This document shows positions 2,458-26,785 of a stretch of 64,000 nucleotides of DNA, one piece after another. The notes beneath the pieces are model-generated. The model was not told the origin of the DNA. It saw only the letters and a program-made list of their open reading frames with translations, and did no database searches. The number at the start of each line of letters is the position of its first letter. Position 1 is the stretch's first letter. Source of the DNA: Escherichia coli (GTDB lineage: Bacteria > Pseudomonadota > Gammaproteobacteria > Enterobacterales > Enterobacteriaceae); NCBI RefSeq assembly GCF_036507355.1, contig NZ_AP027877.1; one strand, 5' to 3'. The translations under genes were made by a program, and so were the position numbers.

Positions 2458-3161
2458 TGGATTTGCCCCTATATTTCCAGACACCTGTTATCACTTAACC
2501 CATTACTGGCCCGCTGCCGCAGATATTCCCGTGGCGAGCGATAACCCAGCGCACTATGCGGATGCCATTCGTTATAATGCTCGAACGCCTCTGCAAGGTT
2601 CTTTGCTGCCGTTAACCCGTCTGGTTTGGGCATGATACTTATGTAGTCACGCTTTATCGTTTTCACGAAGCTCTCTGCTATTCCGTTACTCTCCGGACTC
2701 CGCACTGCCGTGTTCTTCGGTTCAAGTCCCAACATCCTGGCGAACTGACGTGTTTCATTCGCCCGGTAGCATGAACCATTATCCGTCAGCCACTCCACTG
2801 GAGACGCCGGAAGCTCGCTGCCAAAGCGGCGTTCCACTGCTCCCAGCATGACGTCCTGTACTGTTTCACTGTCGAAGCCACCCGTTGTGACCCCCCAGTG
2901 CAGTGCCTCACGGTCACAGCAGTCCAACGCGAACGTGACCCGCAGTTTTTCTCCGTTATCACAGCGGAACTCAAACCCGTCAGAGCACCATCGCTGATTA
3001 CTTTCTTTCACAGCCACTCTGCCGGTATGTGCCCGTTTCGATGGCGGTACAGCGGGTTTTCGCTCAAGCAACAGCGCATTCTGGCGCATGATCCGGTAAA
3101 CACGTTTGGCATTGATCGCAGGCATACCATCAAGTTCTGTTTGTCTGCGAAGCAGCGCCCA
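2458..3161 (-). mobile_element. IS2 remnant: right inverted repeat plus 3' part of orfB (IS3-family transposase), 5' portion deleted
   Basis: ORF 2469-3125 matches the IS2 OrfB C-terminal region as I remember it (...[36 protein letters not shown]...[12 protein letters not shown]); terminus TGGATTTGCCCCTATATTTCCAGACA at 2458. Similarity stops abruptly near 3161. Confidence 0.8.
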
Positions 3162-3636
3162 TAACGCAGCCCTTGCCTTACTGGTGTTTCTGGCCCTGAC
3201 CGGATTACGCCTTGGTGAAACCCGTTATCTTCTGCTTGAGGATATCGACTGGTCCCGTCAGACCATCACTTTGCGAGAAACTAAAAACGGTAAGCTTCGC
3301 TGTGTGCCAGTGGGTGATAAGGCCTTTGTTCTTCTGACTGAGCAGCGCCAGCACTTGGGCGATAAAGGCTGGGTTTTCCCCGGCTATAACACAACTAATC
3401 CGGTTGCAGAACCACGCCGTCTGCAAAAGCGTATATGTGAGAAAGCCGGTATTTCACCATTCACTATTCATGAGATGCGACACACTTTCGCCACGAAACT
3501 TATCGAGAGTGGGGCTGACATCCATACCATCAAAGATTTACTGGGCCACAGCACCATAAAGGTTACCGAGAGGTACCTACATGGCAGCCCGGTGCGCTAC
3601 CACGAGGCCATTAACAAGGCGATGGATACGTTCTAG
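3160..3636 (+). pseudogene. Tyrosine recombinase (phage-type integrase) C-terminal catalytic fragment, N-terminus missing
   Basis: ORF 3106-3636 carries integrase catalytic motifs (HEMRHTFAT, LLGHSTIKVTERYLH) but only ~160 aa; directly abuts the truncated IS2 segment. Confidence 0.7.
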
Positions 3637-3717
3637 GTATAAGCATAACTATCCACAGGCAGGTTAGTTCCTTTTTCCCTGCACGCGATTTATCTGTTTT
3701 TAATTGAGGATTAGATA

Positions 3718-5643
3718 ATGAATAACATAGTGACACCCGCCCCCTTAACGACAATGGCGCGTTTTGCCTGTTCGAAACTGAATGGATTTCTGGCTCGTCG
3801 GGCTTTGCATCAGGCAAATGCGAAGAAAATCCTTAAAAAGGCAATTGCAATCAGCATTGCGGTCGATGAGATTTCGGCAAAAGGGGGGCGTGATGGTCTG
3901 CCTGATGGGTTTGTTAACTCACCGCATGGGCTTTTTTATGATGATGGCAAAAAAGTGTTTCAGCTCAGTTCTACTGCTATTGTTCCCGTCAGCAGGCATT
4001 ATTCAGCGTGTAAGAAGCGCAATATGGGTGTCGAACTCATGACCATTAATCATGCGGGTCAGTATGTCTGCGCTGAAATTTCACTGAGCAACGTTACGCT
4101 AAACCCCGATAGTGTGATTGGCTCCCTGACAGCGCAAGGTTTCGGTATCCCTATGACGGTAAAGACGAAAGAGCTGTTGGCGCAGTTCTTACAGACATGT
4201 ATGAAGCAAGCGCTGGCTCTCCCTACCTACCTTGTCGCTGATTCAATGGGATTTGTACCCGGCAAGAAAGCGTTCTTACATGGCAATATGCCTTTAGCAC
4301 AGAACATCCCTGGGTTTGATTACCTTATTTCCGTTCAGCGTACACCCGCAGGGATCGTTGAGTCCGGCACGCTGGATGCGTGGAAGGCTCTGGTGAAAAA
4401 GAATGTCCATGGATGGCCACAGATTTTTGCATTGTGTTCTGCCTTTGCGTCCATGCTGGTTGCATTGTGTAAAATGGATGTGGCGATGTTTCACTTCTAT
4501 GGTGGGTCAACGACTGGAAAAACGATCCTTCTCCAGCTTGCGATGTCAGTTCATGGTCATGGCGGGGAGCCGGGAAGTGGAAAGCTTGTCAATGTTCTTC
4601 GCTGGAATACCACGGTGAATGCGCTAGAGAAGCGACTGAGTCAGTTCTCAGGCCTGCTGGCATGTGTGGATGAGTTGGGGGCTTATAAACAAAAGGACTT
4701 CGCTTCGCTCCTGTACAACATTACCGCCGGTCAGGGTAAAAGCAGAATGGACAAGAATCTGGATATACGTGAGCTTTATACATGGGAAATGTTAATTCTC
4801 TCCGCAGGTGAAATGTCCATTTCTGAGAAGCTAGCGACGGAAAAAGAACATCTTCAGGGTGGACAGGAACATCGCGCCATTAGCCTCAATGTTTTGCCTG
4901 AAGATGCCCGTAAAGACGGCGAATCATCAGAAAGGGTACGCTGCCGCGCTGATAGTCTGAAAAATGGCCTGAGTGAAGTTTATGGTACGGCGGGTAAGGA
5001 ATTTATTGCTAATTTGCTGGCACTGGATAATGACGATGATGAACCGCAGTCCTGGGATGAAATGTGCCTGTCTATTCAGGGGGCAGTAGAAGAACAACGT
5101 GACAGTCTTGTCGGTGAGCTGCAGGAAGAAGGTTATGCACTTAGTGACATTCAGCTGCGTGCATTAAAACGATTTTCCCTATGTTTGTGTGCCGGAATCC
5201 TGGCAGCATCATGGAATATCCTTCCGTTCAGTGAAGATATTATTAAGGGTGCGGTAATGAGCGCGGCTCGTCGCTGGCTGGATGATAAACCAAACCAGTA
5301 TAGCCCACTAAAGCAGGTGCTTACGGCTATCCAGCACGATCTTCTCACAACCAGAGCGTCCCATTTAATGCCGTTGCTTGATGAGGATGCGCATACCCCA
5401 TACAACCACTGGGGGTACACGGATAAGAACGATAACATGATGATTTTCGCTCCTGTTTTTGAAGGCTGGTGTGCCAAAAAAGGCATTAAACCTGCTGATG
5501 TGGCGAAAGCATTGGCAAAAAAAAATCACCTCAAACCAGAAAGTCAGGGCCACTACAAAAAACGTCCTCAGAAGGGAGTTCAGCAACCTTTTTATCTGGT
5601 TATGAATACATTTCTTGGCTGTAACATTGGCGCTGACTTTTAA
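3718..5643 (+). CDS. DUF927-like protein with P-loop NTPase (primase/helicase-like replication protein of integrative elements)
   Basis: 641-aa ORF with Walker A GGSTTGKT and Walker B-like CVDELG; architecture recalled from P4-like/integrative-element replication proteins. Confidence 0.55.
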   Translation: MNNIVTPAPLTTMARFACSKLNGFLARRALHQANAKKILKKAIAISIAVDEISAKGGRDGLPDGFVNSPHGLFYDDGKKVFQLSSTAIVPVSRHYSACKKRNMGVELMTINHAGQYVCAEISLSNVTLNPDSVIGSLTAQGFGIPMTVKTKELLAQFLQTCMKQALALPTYLVADSMGFVPGKKAFLHGNMPLAQNIPGFDYLISVQRTPAGIVESGTLDAWKALVKKNVHGWPQIFALCSAFASMLVALCKMDVAMFHFYGGSTTGKTILLQLAMSVHGHGGEPGSGKLVNVLRWNTTVNALEKRLSQFSGLLACVDELGAYKQKDFASLLYNITAGQGKSRMDKNLDIRELYTWEMLILSAGEMSISEKLATEKEHLQGGQEHRAISLNVLPEDARKDGESSERVRCRADSLKNGLSEVYGTAGKEFIANLLALDNDDDEPQSWDEMCLSIQGAVEEQRDSLVGELQEEGYALSDIQLRALKRFSLCLCAGILAASWNILPFSEDIIKGAVMSAARRWLDDKPNQYSPLKQVLTAIQHDLLTTRASHLMPLLDEDAHTPYNHWGYTDKNDNMMIFAPVFEGWCAKKGIKPADVAKALAKKNHLKPESQGHYKKRPQKGVQQPFYLVMNTFLGCNIGADF

Positions 5644-6365: not shown

Positions 6366-7553
6366 CTACAACGTATCGGGTAACTGAGCGCGGATACGTT
6401 CCGCCAGTAACTGACTGGTGTTCTGTAAGCGCTGAGGATGAAGATGTGCATAACGCTGTGAAGACTGACTGCTACGGTGCCCCAGTTGAGCCTGAACGTC
6501 ATATAGCGTACCGCCGTAGGACACGATGAGGGCGGCAACCGAATGGCGGCAGGTATGGATACACACTTCCTTGTCGAAAATTCCCGCCCGACGCACGATA
6601 CGCTGAAAGGCTTTAACCGGGTTACTCAGCGGCATTCCCTGTTTTTTACCAATAAACAACCACGGATTTCCCCGCTGCGTTGGCAGCGTTCTGATTACGT
6701 CCATCGCCAGTGAGTTAAGGTGAACAATCCGTCCATAGCCATTCTTGGTTTCAGGGAGCCACAGGGTGCGTTTAACCGGGTCAACATGCTCCCACTTTGC
6801 CAGACGCAGCTCATCGCGGCGAAGGCCGGTCAATAACAGCAGTTTGACATAGCGGGCAGCTACAGGGCTGGTATCGTTATCGGCGGAGAGAAAAATACGA
6901 CGAATTTCGTCCTCGGTAAAATAACGCTGTCGGGCGTTGTTCTCCCTGAGTAGCTGTACCACCCTTGCCGGATGAACAGAGGTCATGCTTTGCCTTCCGG
7001 CCCATGTAAAGACGGCTTTAATGAGTACGATGACACGGTTACAGGTAGCCGCTGACAGGGAAGTACTTAACGTCTGCTGAAGGCGCAGAATGCTCGCTGG
7101 TGTGATATCGCTCAGCAGCCTCTGACCAATGGCGGGACGGATATGATCGCGGTAGCGCTGAACATCCTTTCCCCAACTGCGTTTAGCGGATTTTGCCCAT
7201 GGCAGATAATGCTGATTAAAGAGTTCATCGAACGTCAGCTCCATTCTCTTGTTTTCACGCTCCTGCTTAGGGTCAGTGCCGGTGGCAAGGGAACGTTTGT
7301 GTTCTATGGCAATCTGACGGGCAAGATTGACGTCCACTTCAGGCCAGTGACCAATGGCGATGGCGCGTTTTCGTCCATGATAGAGGTAGCGGAGCAAAAA
7401 CTTTTTACGACCTTCTTTTCTGCTGACCAGACACTTGAGGCCGGAAATCTCGGTGTCGCTGTATTCGGCATCGGTGCTGCGTGCATCTGATGTGTTAGGG
7501 GGCAGTGATTTAATGAGCTGATTAGTAAAACGGAAGCGTTTGGGAGTGGACAT
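6366..7553 (-). CDS. int: P4-type tyrosine integrase
   Basis: 395-aa ORF with arm-binding-like N-terminus and catalytic R..HxxR..Y region (HTCRHSVAALIV, LGHRSSQSSQRYAHL); lies 7.3 kb from tRNA-Phe and is transcribed away from it. Confidence 0.85.
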   Translation of the reverse strand: MSTPKRFRFTNQLIKSLPPNTSDARSTDAEYSDTEISGLKCLVSRKEGRKKFLLRYLYHGRKRAIAIGHWPEVDVNLARQIAIEHKRSLATGTDPKQERENKRMELTFDELFNQHYLPWAKSAKRSWGKDVQRYRDHIRPAIGQRLLSDITPASILRLQQTLSTSLSAATCNRVIVLIKAVFTWAGRQSMTSVHPARVVQLLRENNARQRYFTEDEIRRIFLSADNDTSPVAARYVKLLLLTGLRRDELRLAKWEHVDPVKRTLWLPETKNGYGRIVHLNSLAMDVIRTLPTQRGNPWLFIGKKQGMPLSNPVKAFQRIVRRAGIFDKEVCIHTCRHSVAALIVSYGGTLYDVQAQLGHRSSQSSQRYAHLHPQRLQNTSQLLAERIRAQLPDTL

Positions 7554-7985: not shown

Positions 7986-8056
7986 CTTTGATCAACCTTA
8001 AGATTGTTTCTAGATGGTAAAATCTTCATATGGGAAAGAGCTCACTGGTAAGGAAG
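7986..8056 (+). promoter_or_regulatory. Putative promoter and RBS for the four-gene operon
   Basis: AT-rich divergent intergenic region; TTGATC ... TGGTAAAAT (extended -10-like) and AGGAAG 10 nt before the ATG at 8067. By eye only. Confidence 0.25.
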
Positions 8057-8066
8057 ACAAATCCTG

Positions 8067-9119
8067 ATGGGGATCATCGTACGAATTCTTAAAGCTAACC
8101 ATGGCGATTGCATTTTGGTGAGCCATGAAAGCGGTTCAGGCACTCTCAACTTGCTCATTGATGGGGGACCTGCGACGACATTCAGGTATGGCATTAGGCA
8201 GCGCTATTCTGGAGCATTGAGTAACGCTCTCGATGATCTGAAAGGAAAGGGGCAAAACATTGATCTGGCTATCCTGACCCACATTGATGATGATCACATA
8301 AATGGTTTTATCAAGGCATTCGAAAGTCCAAACTATCTGCGTCAGCTGGTTAAATCGATCTGGTTCAATTCTTCGAGGTTAATCACACATCATTTTAATG
8401 TGCCTGAAATTTGTGAAAATAATATTTTCTTGCAGGAAGTTTCCCCTGAAACTAGCGTTAAACAGGGGCAAGAACTTGAGGCATTACTTGATGAAATCGG
8501 ATGTGTGCGAGCACCGCTCATTATGGCAGGGCAAATCTACAAAGTAGGCCCGATTACTTTAACAGCACTTTCACCTGAACGAAGACAACTCGAACAGCTT
8601 TTGCATAAGTGGCCAACGGAAGTAAGTTCAGCTGACACTTCTTCATATGAGAATGATTATCACCGTTCATTGGACGAAATTTGGGCAGATGATAGATTTG
8701 AATCTGACTCATCTATTTATAATGGAAGCTCAATTGCATTTTTACTGGAAACAGATGACAAAAAAATGCTTTTTTTAGGAGACGCCAATGACCAAGTTGT
8801 TACAAAAAATTTAAGAGCATTGGGCTATAGCGAAACAAACAAGTTGAAGCTGGATCTGGTTAAAGTTTCGCATCATGGTAGTCAATACAACACAAGCAAC
8901 GAATTTCTTTCAATACTAGATTCTCCATGCTTTGTTATTTCAACCAATGGTTCGAAGCATGGTCTTCCTAATAAAAGGACTATTGCAAGGATCTTAAAGG
9001 AAACAGATGGTGATATTTATTTTAATTACAGCAATGTAATTACTCCGCTGCTTTTAGCGCATGAAGCTGAGAGCTATTCTTCTCGTCTAAAAGTGCTAGG
9101 TGATGAGATTAAATTCTAA
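8067..9119 (+). CDS. Metallo-beta-lactamase-fold hydrolase (putative nuclease)
   Basis: 350-aa ORF with MBL motifs in canonical order: LIDGG, THIDDDH (8278-8298), FLGDAN, VSHHGS. Confidence 0.7.
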   Translation: MGIIVRILKANHGDCILVSHESGSGTLNLLIDGGPATTFRYGIRQRYSGALSNALDDLKGKGQNIDLAILTHIDDDHINGFIKAFESPNYLRQLVKSIWFNSSRLITHHFNVPEICENNIFLQEVSPETSVKQGQELEALLDEIGCVRAPLIMAGQIYKVGPITLTALSPERRQLEQLLHKWPTEVSSADTSSYENDYHRSLDEIWADDRFESDSSIYNGSSIAFLLETDDKKMLFLGDANDQVVTKNLRALGYSETNKLKLDLVKVSHHGSQYNTSNEFLSILDSPCFVISTNGSKHGLPNKRTIARILKETDGDIYFNYSNVITPLLLAHEAESYSSRLKVLGDEIKF

Positions 9120-10419
9120 CATGACAGTTTACGAAATAATGCAGTCCCACTGCGTCATGGTTAATGGTGGCAGTGGTGTGCTAGTTAATGCAATGACACT
9201 GGATTACACATATGTACTGACTGCATACCATGTTATTCGTGACACTCTCGATAATATCGAAGTTACCGATCACAGTGGCAATAAACTTACAGTATTAGCT
9301 GTGCTCCTATATCCAGATATTAAATATTTGAACGAATCCCATAATGATTTCGCAATTTTAAAAATTGAATATCAACCAGAAGTTGCACAAAGTTGTTTTA
9401 CTGCTTCGACGTTGCCTCCTCGTGCTGAGCTTACATTAGTAGGATTTCCAAACACTGAAAGAAGGAGTTCGGATCCTATAAAATATTATGATGGACATAT
9501 GACTAGCGTGGTCGATGAGCTTGTCATTTTCACTGTTGATGGTGTACCAGGCTTAGCCACGATAAAGGGGATGTCAGGTGGAGGTGTATATCACATAGTT
9601 GGTAGAAATACATTTCTTGTTGGTGTTGAGTTTAGGATGGATGGCACTGAAGAGGAACAACAGTTTGGCCGAGTGCAATGCCATAGCTTAGCAAAGTTTG
9701 ATGAAATAATAAGAGCATACGATAGCGCACCGATGATTCCTGCCCATTTGGAATGCTTTTCTCGAATACAAGACAAAATATTTAAATTTAATGTTATTGA
9801 TCAAAACAATGTTCGTAATCTTAAAGATGCGTTAGAAGCCCTTTCCAGATCACTTATAGCTAGTGGGATGTCTCCGCCTTACAAAATCATGGGGCAATAT
9901 GGATTACAGCTTTTGATGGATCCCAAAACTCCTAATGAGCTCAGTAATAAAGAGTTATGGATTTCTTATTTTGAATTTTTAGTTATTTGCTCTGTGATAG
10001 ATAATGTTGGAATTGTGGATGATGCATATATAAAAAGCTTGGAGCGAAAGCGGCGGCTATTATATACCAGTAATGGTGCGAACTGGATTAGCCATTTGGA
10101 AGAACTACTCAAAACGGCACGAAAACTTTTAGATAAGGATGGCACTTTAATCGTTGCATCACCTGATGCTGCTGCAAGTGTCTTGCCTCCGAACTTTCGA
10201 CTTAAAAACGTAATAAGTAATATAGCGGTAGTGCCAAACCAGGGGCCGTTTGCTATCGATGAAGTTGAAAGTTCTATTTATACAAGCTTCAAATTAACTC
10301 ATCTGGAGGGACTCCGCAAAAGCTGCGTAATAGACCGTGAGGATGAATATCTAGTAGTTCCAGCAGGTGTACCACAATTGCAGTTATTTAAGGAGAAGCT
10401 TAATGAAATTATTAAGTAA
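9100..10419 (+). CDS. Trypsin-like serine protease domain fused to a ~250-aa C-terminal domain of unknown function
   Basis: His (LTAYHVI), Asp (NDFAILK), Ser (GMSGGGVY) in S1 order in the first ~170 aa. Start ambiguous (GTG 9100, ATG 9103 or ATG 9121); overlaps or abuts the upstream stop. Confidence 0.7.
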   Translation: MMRLNSNMTVYEIMQSHCVMVNGGSGVLVNAMTLDYTYVLTAYHVIRDTLDNIEVTDHSGNKLTVLAVLLYPDIKYLNESHNDFAILKIEYQPEVAQSCFTASTLPPRAELTLVGFPNTERRSSDPIKYYDGHMTSVVDELVIFTVDGVPGLATIKGMSGGGVYHIVGRNTFLVGVEFRMDGTEEEQQFGRVQCHSLAKFDEIIRAYDSAPMIPAHLECFSRIQDKIFKFNVIDQNNVRNLKDALEALSRSLIASGMSPPYKIMGQYGLQLLMDPKTPNELSNKELWISYFEFLVICSVIDNVGIVDDAYIKSLERKRRLLYTSNGANWISHLEELLKTARKLLDKDGTLIVASPDAAASVLPPNFRLKNVISNIAVVPNQGPFAIDEVESSIYTSFKLTHLEGLRKSCVIDREDEYLVVPAGVPQLQLFKEKLNEIIK

Positions 10420-10942
10420 GGAAGTCGATCTGAGTATTTTAAGTGTGAAATATGATAAAATCAGATTTCACATGTATTGCTCAGATGATCCACTTTCATT
10501 TATTTCCTGTATAGTATGTGTATGTGAGACTTCAGCCGATATTTTGGAGAATTGGCGTACTATTCAAAATGTGGTTTCTGTTCACTATCAACCATCGGGT
10601 GACTTAGCATCTTGGAATATGTATATTGTTTTTTTTACAACTGATGTTTTTCCTGTATGGGAAAAATATGAAATAGAAAACAATAAGTTTGCTGCTCGCA
10701 AGATAATTATTGATAAATTCTCAGGTGCCCCCACCTCTGCTCAGTTAGTTACTGAGTTGCAAAAATATTTGTTGGGAACAGACTTAAGACTTGATCCGCG
10801 AGTCAATGAGTCAAAAGAGGCTTTATTGTCTTTAGATAAATACGTTCGTGGTGCTCCATTAGATTCAAAGAATGAGTCCAGAGAAATCCGCGCCTCCATG
10901 GTCAATGAAATAATTAAATTTTTGAACAAAAATGAAAATTAA
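10403..10942 (+). CDS. Small protein of unknown function (possible adaptor component)
   Basis: 179-aa ORF from ATG 10403 with AGGAG upstream; overlaps previous gene end by 17 nt and next gene start by 11 nt. Confidence 0.55.
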   Translation: MKLLSKEVDLSILSVKYDKIRFHMYCSDDPLSFISCIVCVCETSADILENWRTIQNVVSVHYQPSGDLASWNMYIVFFTTDVFPVWEKYEIENNKFAARKIIIDKFSGAPTSAQLVTELQKYLLGTDLRLDPRVNESKEALLSLDKYVRGAPLDSKNESREIRASMVNEIIKFLNKNEN

Positions 10943-13900
10943 AAAAGTTGAGATTGAAGCATTTCGTGCCTACAAATCTAGGTCAGATGGCACGTTTGAT
11001 TTCACGAATGATGGAGATGTTGCTGCAAATTTTGTTGCGATCTATGCTCCGAATGGTTTTGGTAAAAGCTCCTTCTACGATGCTGTTGAATGGGCAATTA
11101 CCAATCACATGGCAAGACTTGGCGGAGAATATAATAAAGCTAATTATGAGAACGCTGCCAAAATCACCAAGGACGATAATGTTGGGCAAGAAATTTTACG
11201 TAATAAATATGTAGATAAAAATATACGCACAAAGGTAGTGGTATCAACCACTCGACCACTCCCTTTTGAGCGTAAACTACCCAAAGTCAGATCTAATGGG
11301 CGTGATTTGCGATTCGGAGATAATAGTCAAAGAGAAAATGATTTTTTCCGACAAGTGATTCTAAGTCAAGATGAAATTGATAGATTTCTCCGAGAAGCCA
11401 AACCGCAAGAGCGCTATACGAAATTTATGGAAAGTTTCGGTGGAGATATTGAAATTGCCCGTAAAGAGCTGTCAGTACTTATAAATGATAATAAGATTGA
11501 GTTGAATAATCTCAATAAAAAGAGAGAATCTATTCTTGAACAATTAAAACAACCAATAGATTCTTCAATTTTCCAAAAATTCAATTCTATTGCTGTTGAA
11601 TTGAATAAGTTGGGTGAAAATATTCAATTACCTGACGAGAGTTTTTCATCTCAAGATGAATATGCTCTTAATGTTAGTCTTATATCGCGACGCCATGAAC
11701 TCGACTCATCACGTTTAACGAACAATCGAACGGTAGAAGCACTGGAAGACAGGCTTCTAAAAATATCTGAAACTGAATTACATGTCCGCAGTTTAGCAGA
11801 ACAGAATTTACATCTTGCTAAATTAGTGAAAGGAGTGGCCGACGCTGATAGGTACCAATCACTTTTGGATTCATACGAAAAATGTGCAGAAGATCAGAAA
11901 ACCACACACATGCATATGACTCGTATTATAGAAGTGATTGATTGCCTTGATGATTTTCTAAAAATTGAGTCTCATCTTCTTGAGTTGTCTACTAGCCAAA
12001 AGATAATTTCTGAAGAACGCACCAAGATCTGTGCGCAGCTTGCAGGTTTTGAAACAACAATTAATCAATTGAATAAGGAGCTTAAGGCTGTAGATGATAG
12101 GGTCGCTATACTTAGGAAGACCGTTGATAACGCCGGGCAAGTATATTTGGAGCTCGCAAATAACCGGGCTCGGGTAAGTAACCTAACACAGCAAATATCA
12201 AAAAAAGAAGTTTCTATTAAGATAGATAAATCTAGGCTTGGGGAGTTGAATCGTGAGTTGACTAGACTTTCTGAACTCAATATTAATGCCACCTCATTAT
12301 CAAACGGAAATCTAGGGACCTTACTTTTAGAACCTACGAAAGTTGAGCAGCTGACGAGATGTTACGCCGAGTTTGATGTGATTGAATCACAAATTCAAGC
12401 TGTGCATGTTACTCAAAAAGCATTATCTGAACAGATGGAATTGCATGAACGACTGATTGCCATTGGAATTGACTATCTTAGTGTACGACCATCCAGTATC
12501 TGTCCTTTATGTACAGCTCCTCACCCATCTGCGGACGGTTTACTGGATAAAATTAAAGGGCGGAACCTTTTATCAGAATTAAGTGAGGAGAATTCTAAAC
12601 AGCTTTTATTTTTCTCTACACGTCAGAAAGAAATTCTTCAATCAATTCAGGATATTACTCAGTGCGCAATTGATTCAAAGGCTCAGTTGATTATTAACTT
12701 AAACAAGGAATTGAGTGAGACTGACGAGAGACTTACTCTTGCAGGTAGAGATATATATTCAATAGAAGCAGAGTTAAAGACTCTTGAGAAACGGACCACA
12801 GAGTTAGAAAGTTTAGTTTGGGCACTTTCACATGATGAACTGGTATCCCGAATTGAAAAAGAAATTGGTGAGCTTTCAATCAAAAGTTCAAAGCTCCTAG
12901 AAGGAAAAGCATTAATTACCCCTCAGGTTGAAATGCTTAATGAATCACTCAAAGAAAAAGACTCTGCGCAGCAAAAAATAGCTTCGGAGTTGGAAGGTAT
13001 CTTTAGCGGAAATATCTACATTACAGTTTATAAATACTTAAATGAAAATGCGATTTCGTCTTCATCCCTCAAAAGTCATACTGAAAAAAGGAAACTAGAG
13101 ATTGAGGCTGAAATAATTAAGTGTAAAACCACTATTGAGTTTTTGACTGAACAATGTGCTGTTTTACAGCAAAAAATGTTAAGTGATGGTATGTGGGTGG
13201 ATTTTGTTCAGTTGAAGCTGCAAAAAGAATCTTTAGAAATAAGTGTTGCCCGCTCTCAATCAGTAATTAACACGTTTTATGAGAGTTTATCTAACCTTAT
13301 AATTATCCGTCCTGAGTACAGTCTTGAAAAAGTCAAAGAGCTCATAGCTGCGAAAGTTCAGGATTGCCATCTTCGTACGAAAGAATTTGATAGGCTCTCA
13401 AATAATATTAATTTACTCATAGAACTTATGAGTTCGTTTAAGCCATATATTAAACATACAGCTCTTCAGAAAGATTTAATGGCTGAAGAGATGTTAATAA
13501 AACAGCGTGAACGGGTCGACACTACTTTAACCGCAGAAAGAGATGCAATAGTGGATAGCCTGAAACTTCTTATCAATAATTTCTTCTATGAAGATCTTAT
13601 TAATTCTATTTATAAGAAGATAGATCCGCATCCTGCCTTTAAAAAAGTAGAGTTTAAGGCTGACTTTGATTCTGATAAGCCAGGCCTAAATATTGTGGTT
13701 AGTGATGAGGTTGGAGAGCAAATCTCGCCAATACTTTATTTCAGTGCGGCTCAAACGAATATTCTAAGCTTAAGTGTCTTTTTAGCTAGTGCACTTCATG
13801 CGAAAGACGATGAGGGTAATCCCATCAATGTTGTTATGATTGATGACCCAATTCAGTCAATGGATTCGATTAATATACTCTCTACGATAGATCTTTTAAG

Positions 13901-14063
13901 AAGTATATGTGTTCAATTTGATAAACAAATTATTATTTCAACGCATGATGAAAACTTCTTTGCCTTACTCCAGCGCAAAATCCCTGCCCAAATTTTTGGA
14001 TCTAAATTCTTGCAATTGGAAAAGTTTGGTGTAGTCGTCCCGGTGCAACCCTTTGTGAACTAA
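10932..14063 (+). CDS. SbcC/Rad50-like ABC ATPase with long coiled coil and central CxxC zinc hook
   Basis: 1043 aa: Walker A NGFGKSS (Lys codon 11064-11066), Q-loop ILSQDE, CPLC at 12501-12512 (residues 524-527, mid-protein), signature-like FSAAQ, Walker B VVMIDDP, H-loop STHDE. The middle ~600 aa are heptad-rich and Leu/Glu/Lys-rich. Confidence 0.8.
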   Translation: MKIKKVEIEAFRAYKSRSDGTFDFTNDGDVAANFVAIYAPNGFGKSSFYDAVEWAITNHMARLGGEYNKANYENAAKITKDDNVGQEILRNKYVDKNIRTKVVVSTTRPLPFERKLPKVRSNGRDLRFGDNSQRENDFFRQVILSQDEIDRFLREAKPQERYTKFMESFGGDIEIARKELSVLINDNKIELNNLNKKRESILEQLKQPIDSSIFQKFNSIAVELNKLGENIQLPDESFSSQDEYALNVSLISRRHELDSSRLTNNRTVEALEDRLLKISETELHVRSLAEQNLHLAKLVKGVADADRYQSLLDSYEKCAEDQKTTHMHMTRIIEVIDCLDDFLKIESHLLELSTSQKIISEERTKICAQLAGFETTINQLNKELKAVDDRVAILRKTVDNAGQVYLELANNRARVSNLTQQISKKEVSIKIDKSRLGELNRELTRLSELNINATSLSNGNLGTLLLEPTKVEQLTRCYAEFDVIESQIQAVHVTQKALSEQMELHERLIAIGIDYLSVRPSSICPLCTAPHPSADGLLDKIKGRNLLSELSEENSKQLLFFSTRQKEILQSIQDITQCAIDSKAQLIINLNKELSETDERLTLAGRDIYSIEAELKTLEKRTTELESLVWALSHDELVSRIEKEIGELSIKSSKLLEGKALITPQVEMLNESLKEKDSAQQKIASELEGIFSGNIYITVYKYLNENAISSSSLKSHTEKRKLEIEAEIIKCKTTIEFLTEQCAVLQQKMLSDGMWVDFVQLKLQKESLEISVARSQSVINTFYESLSNLIIIRPEYSLEKVKELIAAKVQDCHLRTKEFDRLSNNINLLIELMSSFKPYIKHTALQKDLMAEEMLIKQRERVDTTLTAERDAIVDSLKLLINNFFYEDLINSIYKKIDPHPAFKKVEFKADFDSDKPGLNIVVSDEVGEQISPILYFSAAQTNILSLSVFLASALHAKDDEGNPINVVMIDDPIQSMDSINILSTIDLLRSICVQFDKQIIISTHDENFFALLQRKIPAQIFGSKFLQLEKFGVVVPVQPFVN

Positions 14064-14559
14064 AGTGCTTGCACTGCCTCTAAACAATCTGCATGCACAT
14101 CTCGTTGACTAAATTTGAAACGAGATGTGCATTGCTCGTTATAAAAATAAGGCATGTTCTAATTATCCAATCCCCATCAGTATAAGTGGGTGGATAGATA
14201 TATTTGGCCCCTTTAACAGATATGTTAATTTCCACTTTTCGCTTACAGTGGACCTGCAGCTCAGTAACTTACTCACTTTGTGCTAGGAACGGGCATTGCT
14301 AATAGTCAGAGTGTATGACCTGCTCATCGTTGATTAAGGACAGCGCTGTACTGGTTCGTTGAACCCACGGCTCACAACGGACACTCAGGTTATTATTCCA
14401 ATACGTTTAGCTCAAGTAGTATTACTACGGATAAATCATTTTATGATGGCGTGGAGAACGGGGGGATTCTGAAAATGGTAAGAAGTGAAAGGGCAAGAAG
14501 AGCTTGTTGCAGGTGGACGGACTGGTGAAGATTCCCATCTGGAGGGTGTATGCTGCCAA

Positions 14560-14730
14560 GTTTCCCCGCTTGCTATTGGGGATTTCCCCACCTTATTCCC
14601 CGCGACAAAATCATGTTAAGACCAGCGGATTAAGGAGAAATGATAATTCCCCCGTTTTCCCCGTATTTTCTACTTCATTATGAATGATCTGAGAGAAAGG
14701 AACCGTAGAGGACCGTAGAAAGACCGTAGC
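14560..14730. repeat. Clustered short direct repeats (five TTCCCC motifs at 14561-14663; three ACCGTAG repeats at 14702-14729, ~10-11 bp phasing)
   Basis: Read directly from the sequence in the 840-bp non-coding stretch between the operon and tRNA-Phe. Confidence 0.4.
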
Positions 14731-14899
14731 AGTGAGGTTAGGAAAAGGTACATCAGAGGATGTTGAGGTGTCTAAAAGTAACGAACATCTGCGAAAATGG
14801 CGAGAAATCCAGCAAACAAATAACGTGTTGCAACGACCAGAAATCTACCGTAGCCAAGAAAGGAAAAAGCCCCGCTTTGCAGCGAGGCCTTATGAATAT

Positions 14900-14975
14900 T
14901 GGTGCCCGGACTCGGAATCGAACCAAGGACACGGGGATTTTCAATCCCCTGCTCTACCGACTGAGCTATCCGGGC
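14900..14975 (-). tRNA. pheV: tRNA-Phe (GAA anticodon)
   Basis: Reverse complement reads GCCCGGATAGCTCAGTCGGTAGAGCAGGGGATTGAAAATCCCCGTGTCCTTGGTTCGATTCCGAGTCCGGGCACCA, the E. coli tRNA-Phe as I remember it; position next to yqgA-speC indicates pheV. Confidence 0.95.
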
Positions 14976-25777: not shown

Positions 25778-26785
25778 GTGAAAAAGCAATGGATTGTTGG
25801 CACGGCGCTGCTTGTGTTGATGACTGGTAATGTCTGGGCAGATGGCGAACCGCCAACTGAAAATATCTTAAAAGATCAATTCAAAAAGCAGTATCACGGC
25901 ATTCTCAAGCTTGATGCCATCACCTTAAAAAATCTTGATGCTAAGGGTAATCAGGCCACCTGGTCAGCGGAAGGCGATGTCTCTTCCAGTGACGATCTCT
26001 ATACCTGGGTCGGTCAGTTGGCAGATTACGAACTGCTCGAACAGACCTGGACGAAAGATAAACCGGTAAAATTCTCGGCGATGTTAACCAGTAAAGGAAC
26101 GCCCGCGTCTGGCTGGTCGGTGAACTTTTACTCTTTTCAGGCGGCAGCCAGCGATCGTGGGCGGGTGGTCGACGATATCAAAACGAATAATAAATATCTG
26201 ATCGTGAATAGCGAAGATTTCAATTATCGCTTTAGTCAGCTTGAGACTGCGTTGAATACCCAGAAGAACTCGATTCCTGCGCTGGAAAAGGAAGTGAAAG
26301 CGCTTGATAAGCAAATGGTGGCGGCGCAGAAAGCAGCGGATGCATATTGGGGAAAAGATGCAAATGGTAAGCAAATGACCCGCGAAGACGCCTTTAAAAA
26401 AATTCACCAACAGCGTGATGAGTTTAATAAACAGAACGATAGCGAGGCGTTCGCGGTTAAATATGACAAAGAGGTTTATCAACCGGCGATTGCGGCATGT
26501 CATAAACAGAGTGAAGAGTGTTATGAAGTGCCGATTCAGCAGAAACGAGATTTCGATATCAACGAACAACGGCGACAGACTTTTCTGCAATCACAAAAAC
26601 TTAGCCGTAAATTGCAGGATGACTGGGTAACGCTCGAAAAAGGGCAATATCCATTAACGATGAAAGTTTCAGAAATAAACAGTAAAAAAGTCGCGATTTT
26701 GATGAAGATTGACGATATCAACCAGGCTAATGAACGCTGGAAAAAAGATACCGAACAACTGCGTAGCAATGGGGTGATTAAGTAA
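25778..26785 (+). CDS. yggM: DUF1202 periplasmic protein
   Basis: 335 aa with signal peptide; sequence recognised. Confidence 0.9.
   Translation: MKKQWIVGTALLVLMTGNVWADGEPPTENILKDQFKKQYHGILKLDAITLKNLDAKGNQATWSAEGDVSSSDDLYTWVGQLADYELLEQTWTKDKPVKFSAMLTSKGTPASGWSVNFYSFQAAASDRGRVVDDIKTNNKYLIVNSEDFNYRFSQLETALNTQKNSIPALEKEVKALDKQMVAAQKAADAYWGKDANGKQMTREDAFKKIHQQRDEFNKQNDSEAFAVKYDKEVYQPAIAACHKQSEECYEVPIQQKRDFDINEQRRQTFLQSQKLSRKLQDDWVTLEKGQYPLTMKVSEINSKKVAILMKIDDINQANERWKKDTEQLRSNGVIK

Follow-up and report, generated by a model that had tools for sequence, protein, structure and literature searches.

The locus described here raises the question of what a trypsin-like serine protease with a long C-terminal extension is doing in a compact bacterial operon. 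The operon is located in a window of 64,000 nucleotides (nt) of an Escherichia coli chromosome (contig NZ_AP027877.1; "the window" denotes this entire stretch of analysed DNA), where four overlapping, co-directional genes extend from 8067 to 14063, the protease gene being the second of them. By its matches to families of defence proteins, the locus belongs to the 'long' kind of Lamassu, a group of anti-phage systems known earlier as ABC-3C, and it is likely, in our opinion, that its protease-bearing LmuA component cuts and activates the product of the gene immediately upstream, a predicted pro-nuclease of the metallo-β-lactamase (MBL) fold. The four genes are the following:

8067..9119, + strand: MBL-fold hydrolase 'LmuA-H', predicted gated pro-DNase, 350 amino acids (PADLOC, NCBIfam, RefSeq, AlphaFold2 (AF2) model)
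9100..10419, + strand: protease-CTD4 protein 'LmuA-P', 439 amino acids from GTG 9100 or, more likely, 432 amino acids from ATG 9121 (PADLOC, Pfam, RefSeq)
10403..10942, + strand, from ATG: LmuC, ABC-3C middle component 1, 179 amino acids, preceded by an AAGGAG ribosome-binding site (PADLOC, Pfam, RefSeq)
10932..14063, + strand: LmuB, long SMC/Rad50/SbcC-like ABC ATPase, 1043 amino acids (PADLOC, Pfam, motifs)

A protease fused to a Lamassu C-terminal domain

The protease-CTD4 protein is composed of two parts, whose positions on the DNA are listed below:

9169..9603, + strand: trypsin-like serine protease domain (PA clan, S1-type), from Pfam and motif conservation
9229-9231, 9346-9348 and 9574-9576, + strand: codons of the triad residues H44, D83 and S159
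9679..10332, + strand: CTD4 (PF20280), long-type LmuA's C-terminal domain (CTD), including a less confident acidic loop AIDEVES at residues ~383-391

The N-terminal part is matched in Pfam by both Trypsin_2 (residues 24-168, E 1.7e-8) and Trypsin (residues 21-176, E 1.4e-6). The initial annotation, made from the letters of this DNA, had placed a His-Asp-Ser triad in S1 order within the first ~170 residues, which proved correct: the triad is formed by His44, Asp83 and Ser159, in the motifs TAYH44V, ND83FAIL and GMS159GGG, the last of the GxSGG type. It had also been proposed there that a triad varying among homologues would speak against a protease. Upon inspection, all three residues were found to be unchanged in 121 of 121 sequences of 54-97% identity, and the triad is retained in 129 of 130 full-length representatives of 50%-identity clusters (24-56% identity), the lone exception being a substitution of Asp by Gly. 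Such conservation over ~250 homologues is far beyond chance. By the order of the triad and the motif around the serine, the protein is a PA-clan (S1-type) serine protease, with a predicted peptidase activity.

The relationship of this domain to previously described proteases is less easily traced by direct comparison. In PADLOC a weak match links it to RT_UG9_large, namely to the protease region at the N-terminus of that model, and a BLASTP alignment with the protease of PflHamA covers 143 residues at ~24% identity, with a pairwise E of 0.08. The latter match is weak, and therefore the homology to that pair of proteins rests on cross-hits of hidden Markov models (HMMs) and on the alignment of the nucleases described below. 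A search of PDB sequences with the whole protein returned solely spurious repeats of designed 'Pizza' propellers, which were rejected.

In the C-terminal ~250 residues the initial annotation had recognised nothing and had suggested a sensor or target-binding module. Both statements have to be replaced. Residues 194-411 match, from end to end and with an E of 1.3e-59, the catalogued Pfam domain CTD4 (PF20280), described as 'C-terminal domain 4 of the ABC-three component (ABC-3C) systems', i.e. a class of C-terminal domains of ABC-3C/Lamassu effectors, and in the solved complexes of short Lamassu systems the sensor of DNA ends is a different protein, LmuB. The C-terminal domains of LmuA have been divided into classes CTD1 to CTD12, some of them restricted to one effector and others promiscuous (Li et al.). 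A search with a profile of the C-terminal domain by itself yielded 186 proteins, and among the 120 matches listed all are protease fusions or fragments; within the reach of this search, CTD4 is specific to this protease. We also considered CTD4 as a promiscuous adaptor, of which no sign was obtained, there being no other effector fusion among those 120 matches; such a role is not demonstrable by this route. A structural model of residues 185-439, built with AF2 from an alignment of 139 sequences, is confident (predicted local distance difference test, pLDDT, 94.7; predicted template modelling score, pTM, 0.90); besides helices it contains three short strands and a loop of lower confidence, in which the acidic AIDEVES segment is located. 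Comparison of this model with the structures in the PDB found no solved structural relative. By analogy, we assign to CTD4 a presumed role in docking to LmuB and LmuC and in oligomerisation.

The assignment of the system follows from all four genes, each of which PADLOC identifies as Lamassu, and the initial view that the protease belongs to a defence locus was thereby borne out. The protease-CTD4 protein matches a PADLOC model of LmuA (PDLC03855) over its full length with an E of 1.6e-142 and is called 'ABC-three component system protein' in RefSeq. The third gene product matches LmuC in PADLOC (E 3.5e-50) and MComp1 in Pfam (E 2.3e-8), and its RefSeq name is 'ABC-three component system middle component 1'. 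The fourth is aligned by residues 1-1038 with positions 1-1006 of the 1007 in the PADLOC LmuB model PDLC03865 (E 0, 1036 bits); it is matched by AAA_23 and SMC_N in Pfam, is named 'AAA family ATPase' in RefSeq, and contains a Walker A-type motif APNGFGKS, a signature FSAAQ and an H-loop, in addition to two elements that are of use for classification:

12501-12512, + strand: LmuB zinc-hook CPLC (a single CxxC), residues 524-527
13830-13847, + strand: LmuB Walker B VVMIDD, residues 967-972

According to Haudiquet et al. 2025, the LmuB of 'long' Lamassu has one CxxC and a Walker B consensus hhhhDD, and the CTD of 'long' LmuA exhibits a mixed helix/β-sheet fold with a conserved acidic loop and without similarity to known domains. 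The LmuB of the window agrees with this description in its length of ~1000 residues, its single CxxC and its hhhhDD, and the CTD4 model in its helices and strands, its candidate acidic loop and its lack of a relative in the PDB. Judged by these sequence features, the locus is a 'long' Lamassu (ABC-3C) of the Hydrolase_Protease subtype of DefenseFinder and PADLOC, and as such it is already catalogued. A long Hydrolase-Protease Lamassu of B. cereus B4077 has been reported as experimentally validated (Haudiquet et al.).

The upstream protein as a predicted pro-nuclease

If the protease is a switch, its likely substrate is the protein encoded directly upstream. The following residues of this protein are of importance for the argument:

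8280-8297, + strand: MBL metal motif H72-x-D74-x-D76-H77, with H270 as a further metal residue
8451-8453 and 8637-8639, + strand: candidate gate residues T129 and T191

The protein matches the PADLOC LmuA model PDLC03854 with an E of 2.2e-128, cross-matches the RTasMBL and Avs1a models, partially matches Avs1a in NCBIfam, and bears in RefSeq the name 'ComEC/Rec2 family competence protein'. Of its metal-binding residues, H72, D74, D76, H77 and D239 show no variation, while H270 persists in 120 of 121 sequences. The AF2 model of the protein has a pLDDT of 89.5 and exactly two segments of low confidence, residues 127-132 and 187-193. Its closest fold in the PDB is the β-lactamase-like nuclease domain of ComEC (9ic4, E 2.8e-11), which has 266 residues and is ~84 shorter than the 350 residues of the protein from the window.

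Such a pair of genes has been described by Tuck et al. (Science 2025, PMC12799240), who report that Hachiman, AVAST, Lamassu and DRT systems have repeatedly gained an MBL-fold nuclease gene that is located directly upstream of one for a trypsin-like protease, the protease in each pair being fused to a defence protein. In Hachiman and AVAST the nuclease is an inactive pro-enzyme, in which two disordered insertions block the active site; each insertion has one conserved isoleucine, behind which the partner protease cleaves. These isoleucines are I118 and I218 in HamM; in EpiAvs1a, cleavage adjacent to I134 was detected by western blot and I234 is supported by mutagenesis. The protease is active only upon oligomerisation of the partner domain to which it is fused, and the cut nuclease degrades DNA indiscriminately. 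The conversion by cleavage into an active DNase was demonstrated in that study only for Hachiman, AVAST and Canu.

To place the protein of the window in this framework, it was aligned, together with its relatives, with four nucleases whose sequences are given in Table S1 of Tuck et al., namely PflHamM, EpiAvs1a, the Avs1a of Citrobacter and the LmuA-H of Bacillus. T129 falls in the column that contains HamM I118, EpiAvs1a I134 and Bacillus LmuA-H I137, a column well anchored before a conserved S-x-x-Q-G. This column has threonine in 121 of 121 close homologues as well as in each of the five distant loci, and T191 is likewise invariant in the 121 sequences, each of the two residues lying within an otherwise variable loop of low pLDDT. 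Near the site in loop 2, the invariant residues are T191, which is followed by S, A or T and lies within the low-confidence segment, and D197-Y198. From this alignment we predict cleavage of loop 1 after T129. The second cleavage site is uncertain, as loop 2 aligns ambiguously, and may be T191 or the D197-Y198 region.

The model that we favour comprises five steps. In uninfected cells, CTD4 would dock the protease on LmuB2-LmuC and keep it monomeric and inactive. LmuB, an SbcC/Rad50-like protein with a zinc hook, would then recognise aberrant DNA, e.g. free ends from phage replication, and an ATP-dependent rearrangement would free or re-arrange the protease-CTD4 protein, which would oligomerise via CTD4 and become active. 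The protease would then attack the MBL protein in its disordered gating loops. The most likely site of the cut is directly behind the invariant Thr129, and the 187-199 loop would perhaps be cut as well, at Thr191 or in the Asp197-Tyr198 region. The ComEC-like DNase unmasked in this way would degrade DNA indiscriminately and abort the infection. The gene identities, the domain architecture, the conservation of the triad and of the motifs, the synteny of the four genes and the two low-confidence loops with invariant threonines are established directly; the steps themselves are modelled on related systems. Those from docking to oligomerisation are patterned on the solved structures of short Lamassu, in which two LmuB protomers and LmuC hold the CTD of LmuA, DNA ends are bound by LmuB, and LmuA, upon its release, oligomerises via its CTD into a tetramer and becomes active. 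Those from cleavage to DNA degradation follow what Tuck et al. 2025 found experimentally in Hachiman and AVAST. The initial annotation had considered the protease as an activatable effector or a proteolytic switch; with the triad intact the switch is the best reading, while the MBL pro-nuclease upstream (8067-9119), the likely substrate, had been overlooked.

Several points weigh against this model. Proteolytic activation of the nuclease in Lamassu was only inferred by Tuck et al. (PMC12799240), and the covering of the MBL active site by the two loops is a predicted role. The isoleucines of the mapped cleavage sites are absent, loop 1 carrying a threonine instead. Compared with HamM and Avs1a, loop 2 lacks ~25 residues, and I218/I234 align ambiguously with its variable H199/R200. 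Taken literally, the conserved isoleucine of the gated pro-nucleases is missing from the aligned protein, while an invariant residue in the predicted disordered gate is there. Furthermore, the CTD4 model shows no fold similarity to the solved CTDs of short-type LmuA, and its proposed function in sequestration and oligomerisation is derived by analogy and from published AlphaFold3 (AF3) predictions.

Alternatively, the protease could be the terminal effector itself, degrading host or phage proteins broadly, with the MBL hydrolase as an independent second effector. The N-terminal domains of LmuA in Lamassu are usually toxic effectors in their own right (Cap4, Sir2, Mrr), 'Protease' figures among the LmuA effector types in DefenseFinder, and cleavage of the nuclease in Lamassu is a matter of inference. 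However, the protease of Hachiman is specific for its nuclease, as the other proteins tested remained uncut, the MBL gene is found directly upstream of the protease-CTD4 gene in every locus examined (L002-L007), and invariant residues are retained in variable, disordered loops of the nuclease at the position of a mapped cut site. We regard a protease of broad action as unlikely.

It might be also argued that CTD4 is the sensor of infection, which binds a phage protein or nucleic acid and thereby turns on the protease without recourse to LmuB. Such a function would suit a domain whose compact fold is predicted with confidence and has no solved relative, and which is fused only to this protease among the matches listed. 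Yet CTD4 is always accompanied by LmuC and a Rad50/SbcC-like LmuB in the loci examined, and in the Lamassu systems that have been tested defence is abolished by mutations of the LmuB ATPase and by deletion of lmuC. In the solved systems it is LmuB that binds DNA ends, the CTD being a docking and oligomerisation module, and published AF3 models put the CTDs of long LmuA on the heads of LmuB. On balance, autonomous sensing by CTD4 appears very improbable, and we retain the model in which LmuB is the sensor and CTD4 the docking module.

Finally, an ordinary HtrA/DegP-like protease of housekeeping or periplasmic quality control, residing by the defence genes, is suggested by a weak NCBIfam DegP/HtrA match (TIGR02037, 19 bits against a cut-off of 416) but is effectively refuted by the full-length match to the LmuA model, by the lack of a PDZ domain in Pfam and of a signal peptide or hydrophobic segment (maximal 19-residue Kyte-Doolittle mean of 1.7, at residue 281), and by the context of the gene, which overlaps those beside it in an operon of low GC that was acquired horizontally and is carried by only 3 of 5426 complete E. 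coli genomes. The initial annotation had named a C-terminal match to a commonplace domain of periplasmic proteases as a second finding that would speak against it; neither PDZ or a similar domain in that region nor any hydrophobic stretch resembling a signal or transmembrane segment in the protein was found.

The operon, its island and its distribution

The open reading frame of the protease-CTD4 gene ('LmuA-P') has 439 codons on the + strand, from GTG 9100 to the stop codon ending at 10419. Its start is likely ATG 9121 (residue 8), giving a protein of 432 amino acids, because the N-termini of homologues and the start of the PADLOC model agree: residue 8 is the N-terminus in 71 of 120 protease-CTD4 homologues, and the PADLOC model also begins there. 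The RefSeq entry WP_196783621.1 (in NZ_CP139337) places the start at GTG 9178, which would deprive the protease of its conserved GGSG strand at the N-terminus. ATG 9121 is located 1 nt past the stop codon of the upstream MBL gene, a spacing that suggests translational coupling. The lmuC frame, which extends over 10367/10403-10942, overlaps both of its neighbours and, from ATG 10403, shares 17 nt with the end of the protease gene.

The block from ~8000 to 14100 has a G+C content of 35-40%, as compared to ~50-54% in the flanking chromosome, and several elements around it bear on its origin:

6366..7553, - strand: tyrosine integrase that belongs to the island and lies upstream of the operon
14900..14975, - strand: tRNA-Phe (GAA), which adjoins yqgA and speC and shows where the island is inserted in the chromosome
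14093..14132, + strand: inverted repeat of 14 bp without mismatch, its loop being 12 nt long, 30 nt past the lmuB stop

A block of 6.1 kb is 99.8-100% identical in three E. coli chromosomes, and because only these three among 5426 complete E. coli genomes carry it, the operon is, by this survey, a rare, horizontally acquired cargo. The inverted repeat at 14093-14132 could form a hairpin and is a possible terminator or transcript end of the operon; it has no clean T-run, and a terminator scan called nothing after lmuB. In a scan for promoters, sites were no more numerous than in shuffled sequence. The 0.8-kb non-coding stretch between lmuB and tRNA-Phe contains three close direct copies of (G/A)ACCGTAG(A) at 14694-14730 and a fourth ACCGTAG at 14839-14853, which might be binding sites of a recombinase or a regulator at the island junction.

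To the left of the operon (2469-5643) the island is composite:

2469-3125, - strand: open reading frame of an IS3-family transposase, which abuts the following element
3106-3636: truncated second tyrosine integrase
3718-5643: DUF927 protein, 641 amino acids

A second copy of the tRNA-Phe 3' end was sought within the window and none was found, which leaves the far boundary of the island undefined.

The order MBL protein, protease-CTD4, MComp1 and an ATPase of ~1020-1060 amino acids recurs in three metagenomic contigs and two conjugative plasmids. The protease of these five distant loci is only 24-39% identical to that of the window, and their neighbours are restriction-modification, AbiE(ii) or integrase genes. 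One of the distant operons (L003, 1-3323) adjoins a restriction enzyme of the MvaI/BcnI type, Vsr and a cytosine methylase, and another (L005, 1203-4196) adjoins AbiEii/DUF6088 and an integrase; by their gene content, both settings resemble defence islands. A search of plasmids revealed only five homologues, and a search of a phage collection none. A protease-CTD4 homologue of 70% identity is reduced to its last ~115 residues on plasmid NZ_CP089040.1 of Acinetobacter ursingii (26285-26632). It lies beside an intact 'middle component 1' gene, and this copy appears, as judged from its sequence, to be a decayed or truncated system.

Relation to known systems

The type of system described here is already known and is annotated automatically by defence-finder tools and RefSeq, and its mechanism has been published for sister systems, hence the value of the locus as a discovery is small. 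Its remaining value is that of a test case for proteolytic activation of a nuclease in Lamassu. The complex of long Lamassu and the CTD4 domain are targets for structure determination, and T129, which stands in place of a mapped isoleucine, provides a sharp mutational prediction in a system native to E. coli.

The HtrA/DegP-type proteases of the Trypsin_2 family resemble the protein of the window in catalytic fold and in the motifs that surround His, Asp and Ser. They differ from it in that the latter has neither a PDZ domain nor an export signal, is cytoplasmic, resides in a defence operon and scores far below the cut-off of their family. With the Hydrolase_Protease subtype of Lamassu, on the other hand, the E. 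coli copy, as judged from its sequence, agrees completely in architecture: it comprises the same four genes in the same order, and the family HMMs match over their full length.

The short Lamassu/DdmABC systems with a Cap4-nuclease LmuA, whose structures from V. cholerae and S. enterica were solved by cryo-electron microscopy, follow a common logic, in which LmuC and an SMC-like LmuB act together with an effector domain fused to a CTD; there, the effector is maintained as a monomer, and its release and an oligomerisation driven by the CTD activate it. The short CTDs are helical bundles, whereas the fold of CTD4 is different, and LmuB of the type found in the window is approximately twice as long. 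Furthermore, the LmuA and LmuC of long systems are predicted to be located at the heads of LmuB and not at the apex of its coiled coil, and the effector of the window is a protease that is proposed to act on a separate protein, in contrast to a nuclease that acts directly.

The closest parallels in mechanism are Hachiman (PflHamM and protease-HamA) and AVAST type 1 (EpiAvs1a and Avs1b). There, too, the gene of a trypsin-like protease has directly upstream of it that of a ComEC-like MBL nuclease carrying two additional disordered loops, the protease is likewise fused by its C-terminus to the partner-binding domain of a defence system, and the PADLOC models cross-match. In the window, CTD4 takes the place of the dead HamA or the STAND NTPase as the partner, an SMC-like ATPase is the presumed sensor, the P1 residue in loop 1 is threonine and not isoleucine, and the two loops are shorter by ~12 and ~25 residues. 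Within Lamassu itself, the nuclease of the window has a threonine at the loop-1 site where the Bacillus LmuA-H of Tuck et al. has an isoleucine, i.e. the P1 residue differs between clades. It is conceivable, although we would not yet count on it, that the CTD4-linked clade is a distinct variant of Lamassu, in which specificity has shifted from isoleucine to threonine (T129, perhaps also T191, in shortened gates) and the protease is controlled by CTD4, a domain without structural precedent that is docked at the heads of the SbcC-like LmuB in an SbcD-like position, unlike the sequestration at the apex in short Lamassu.

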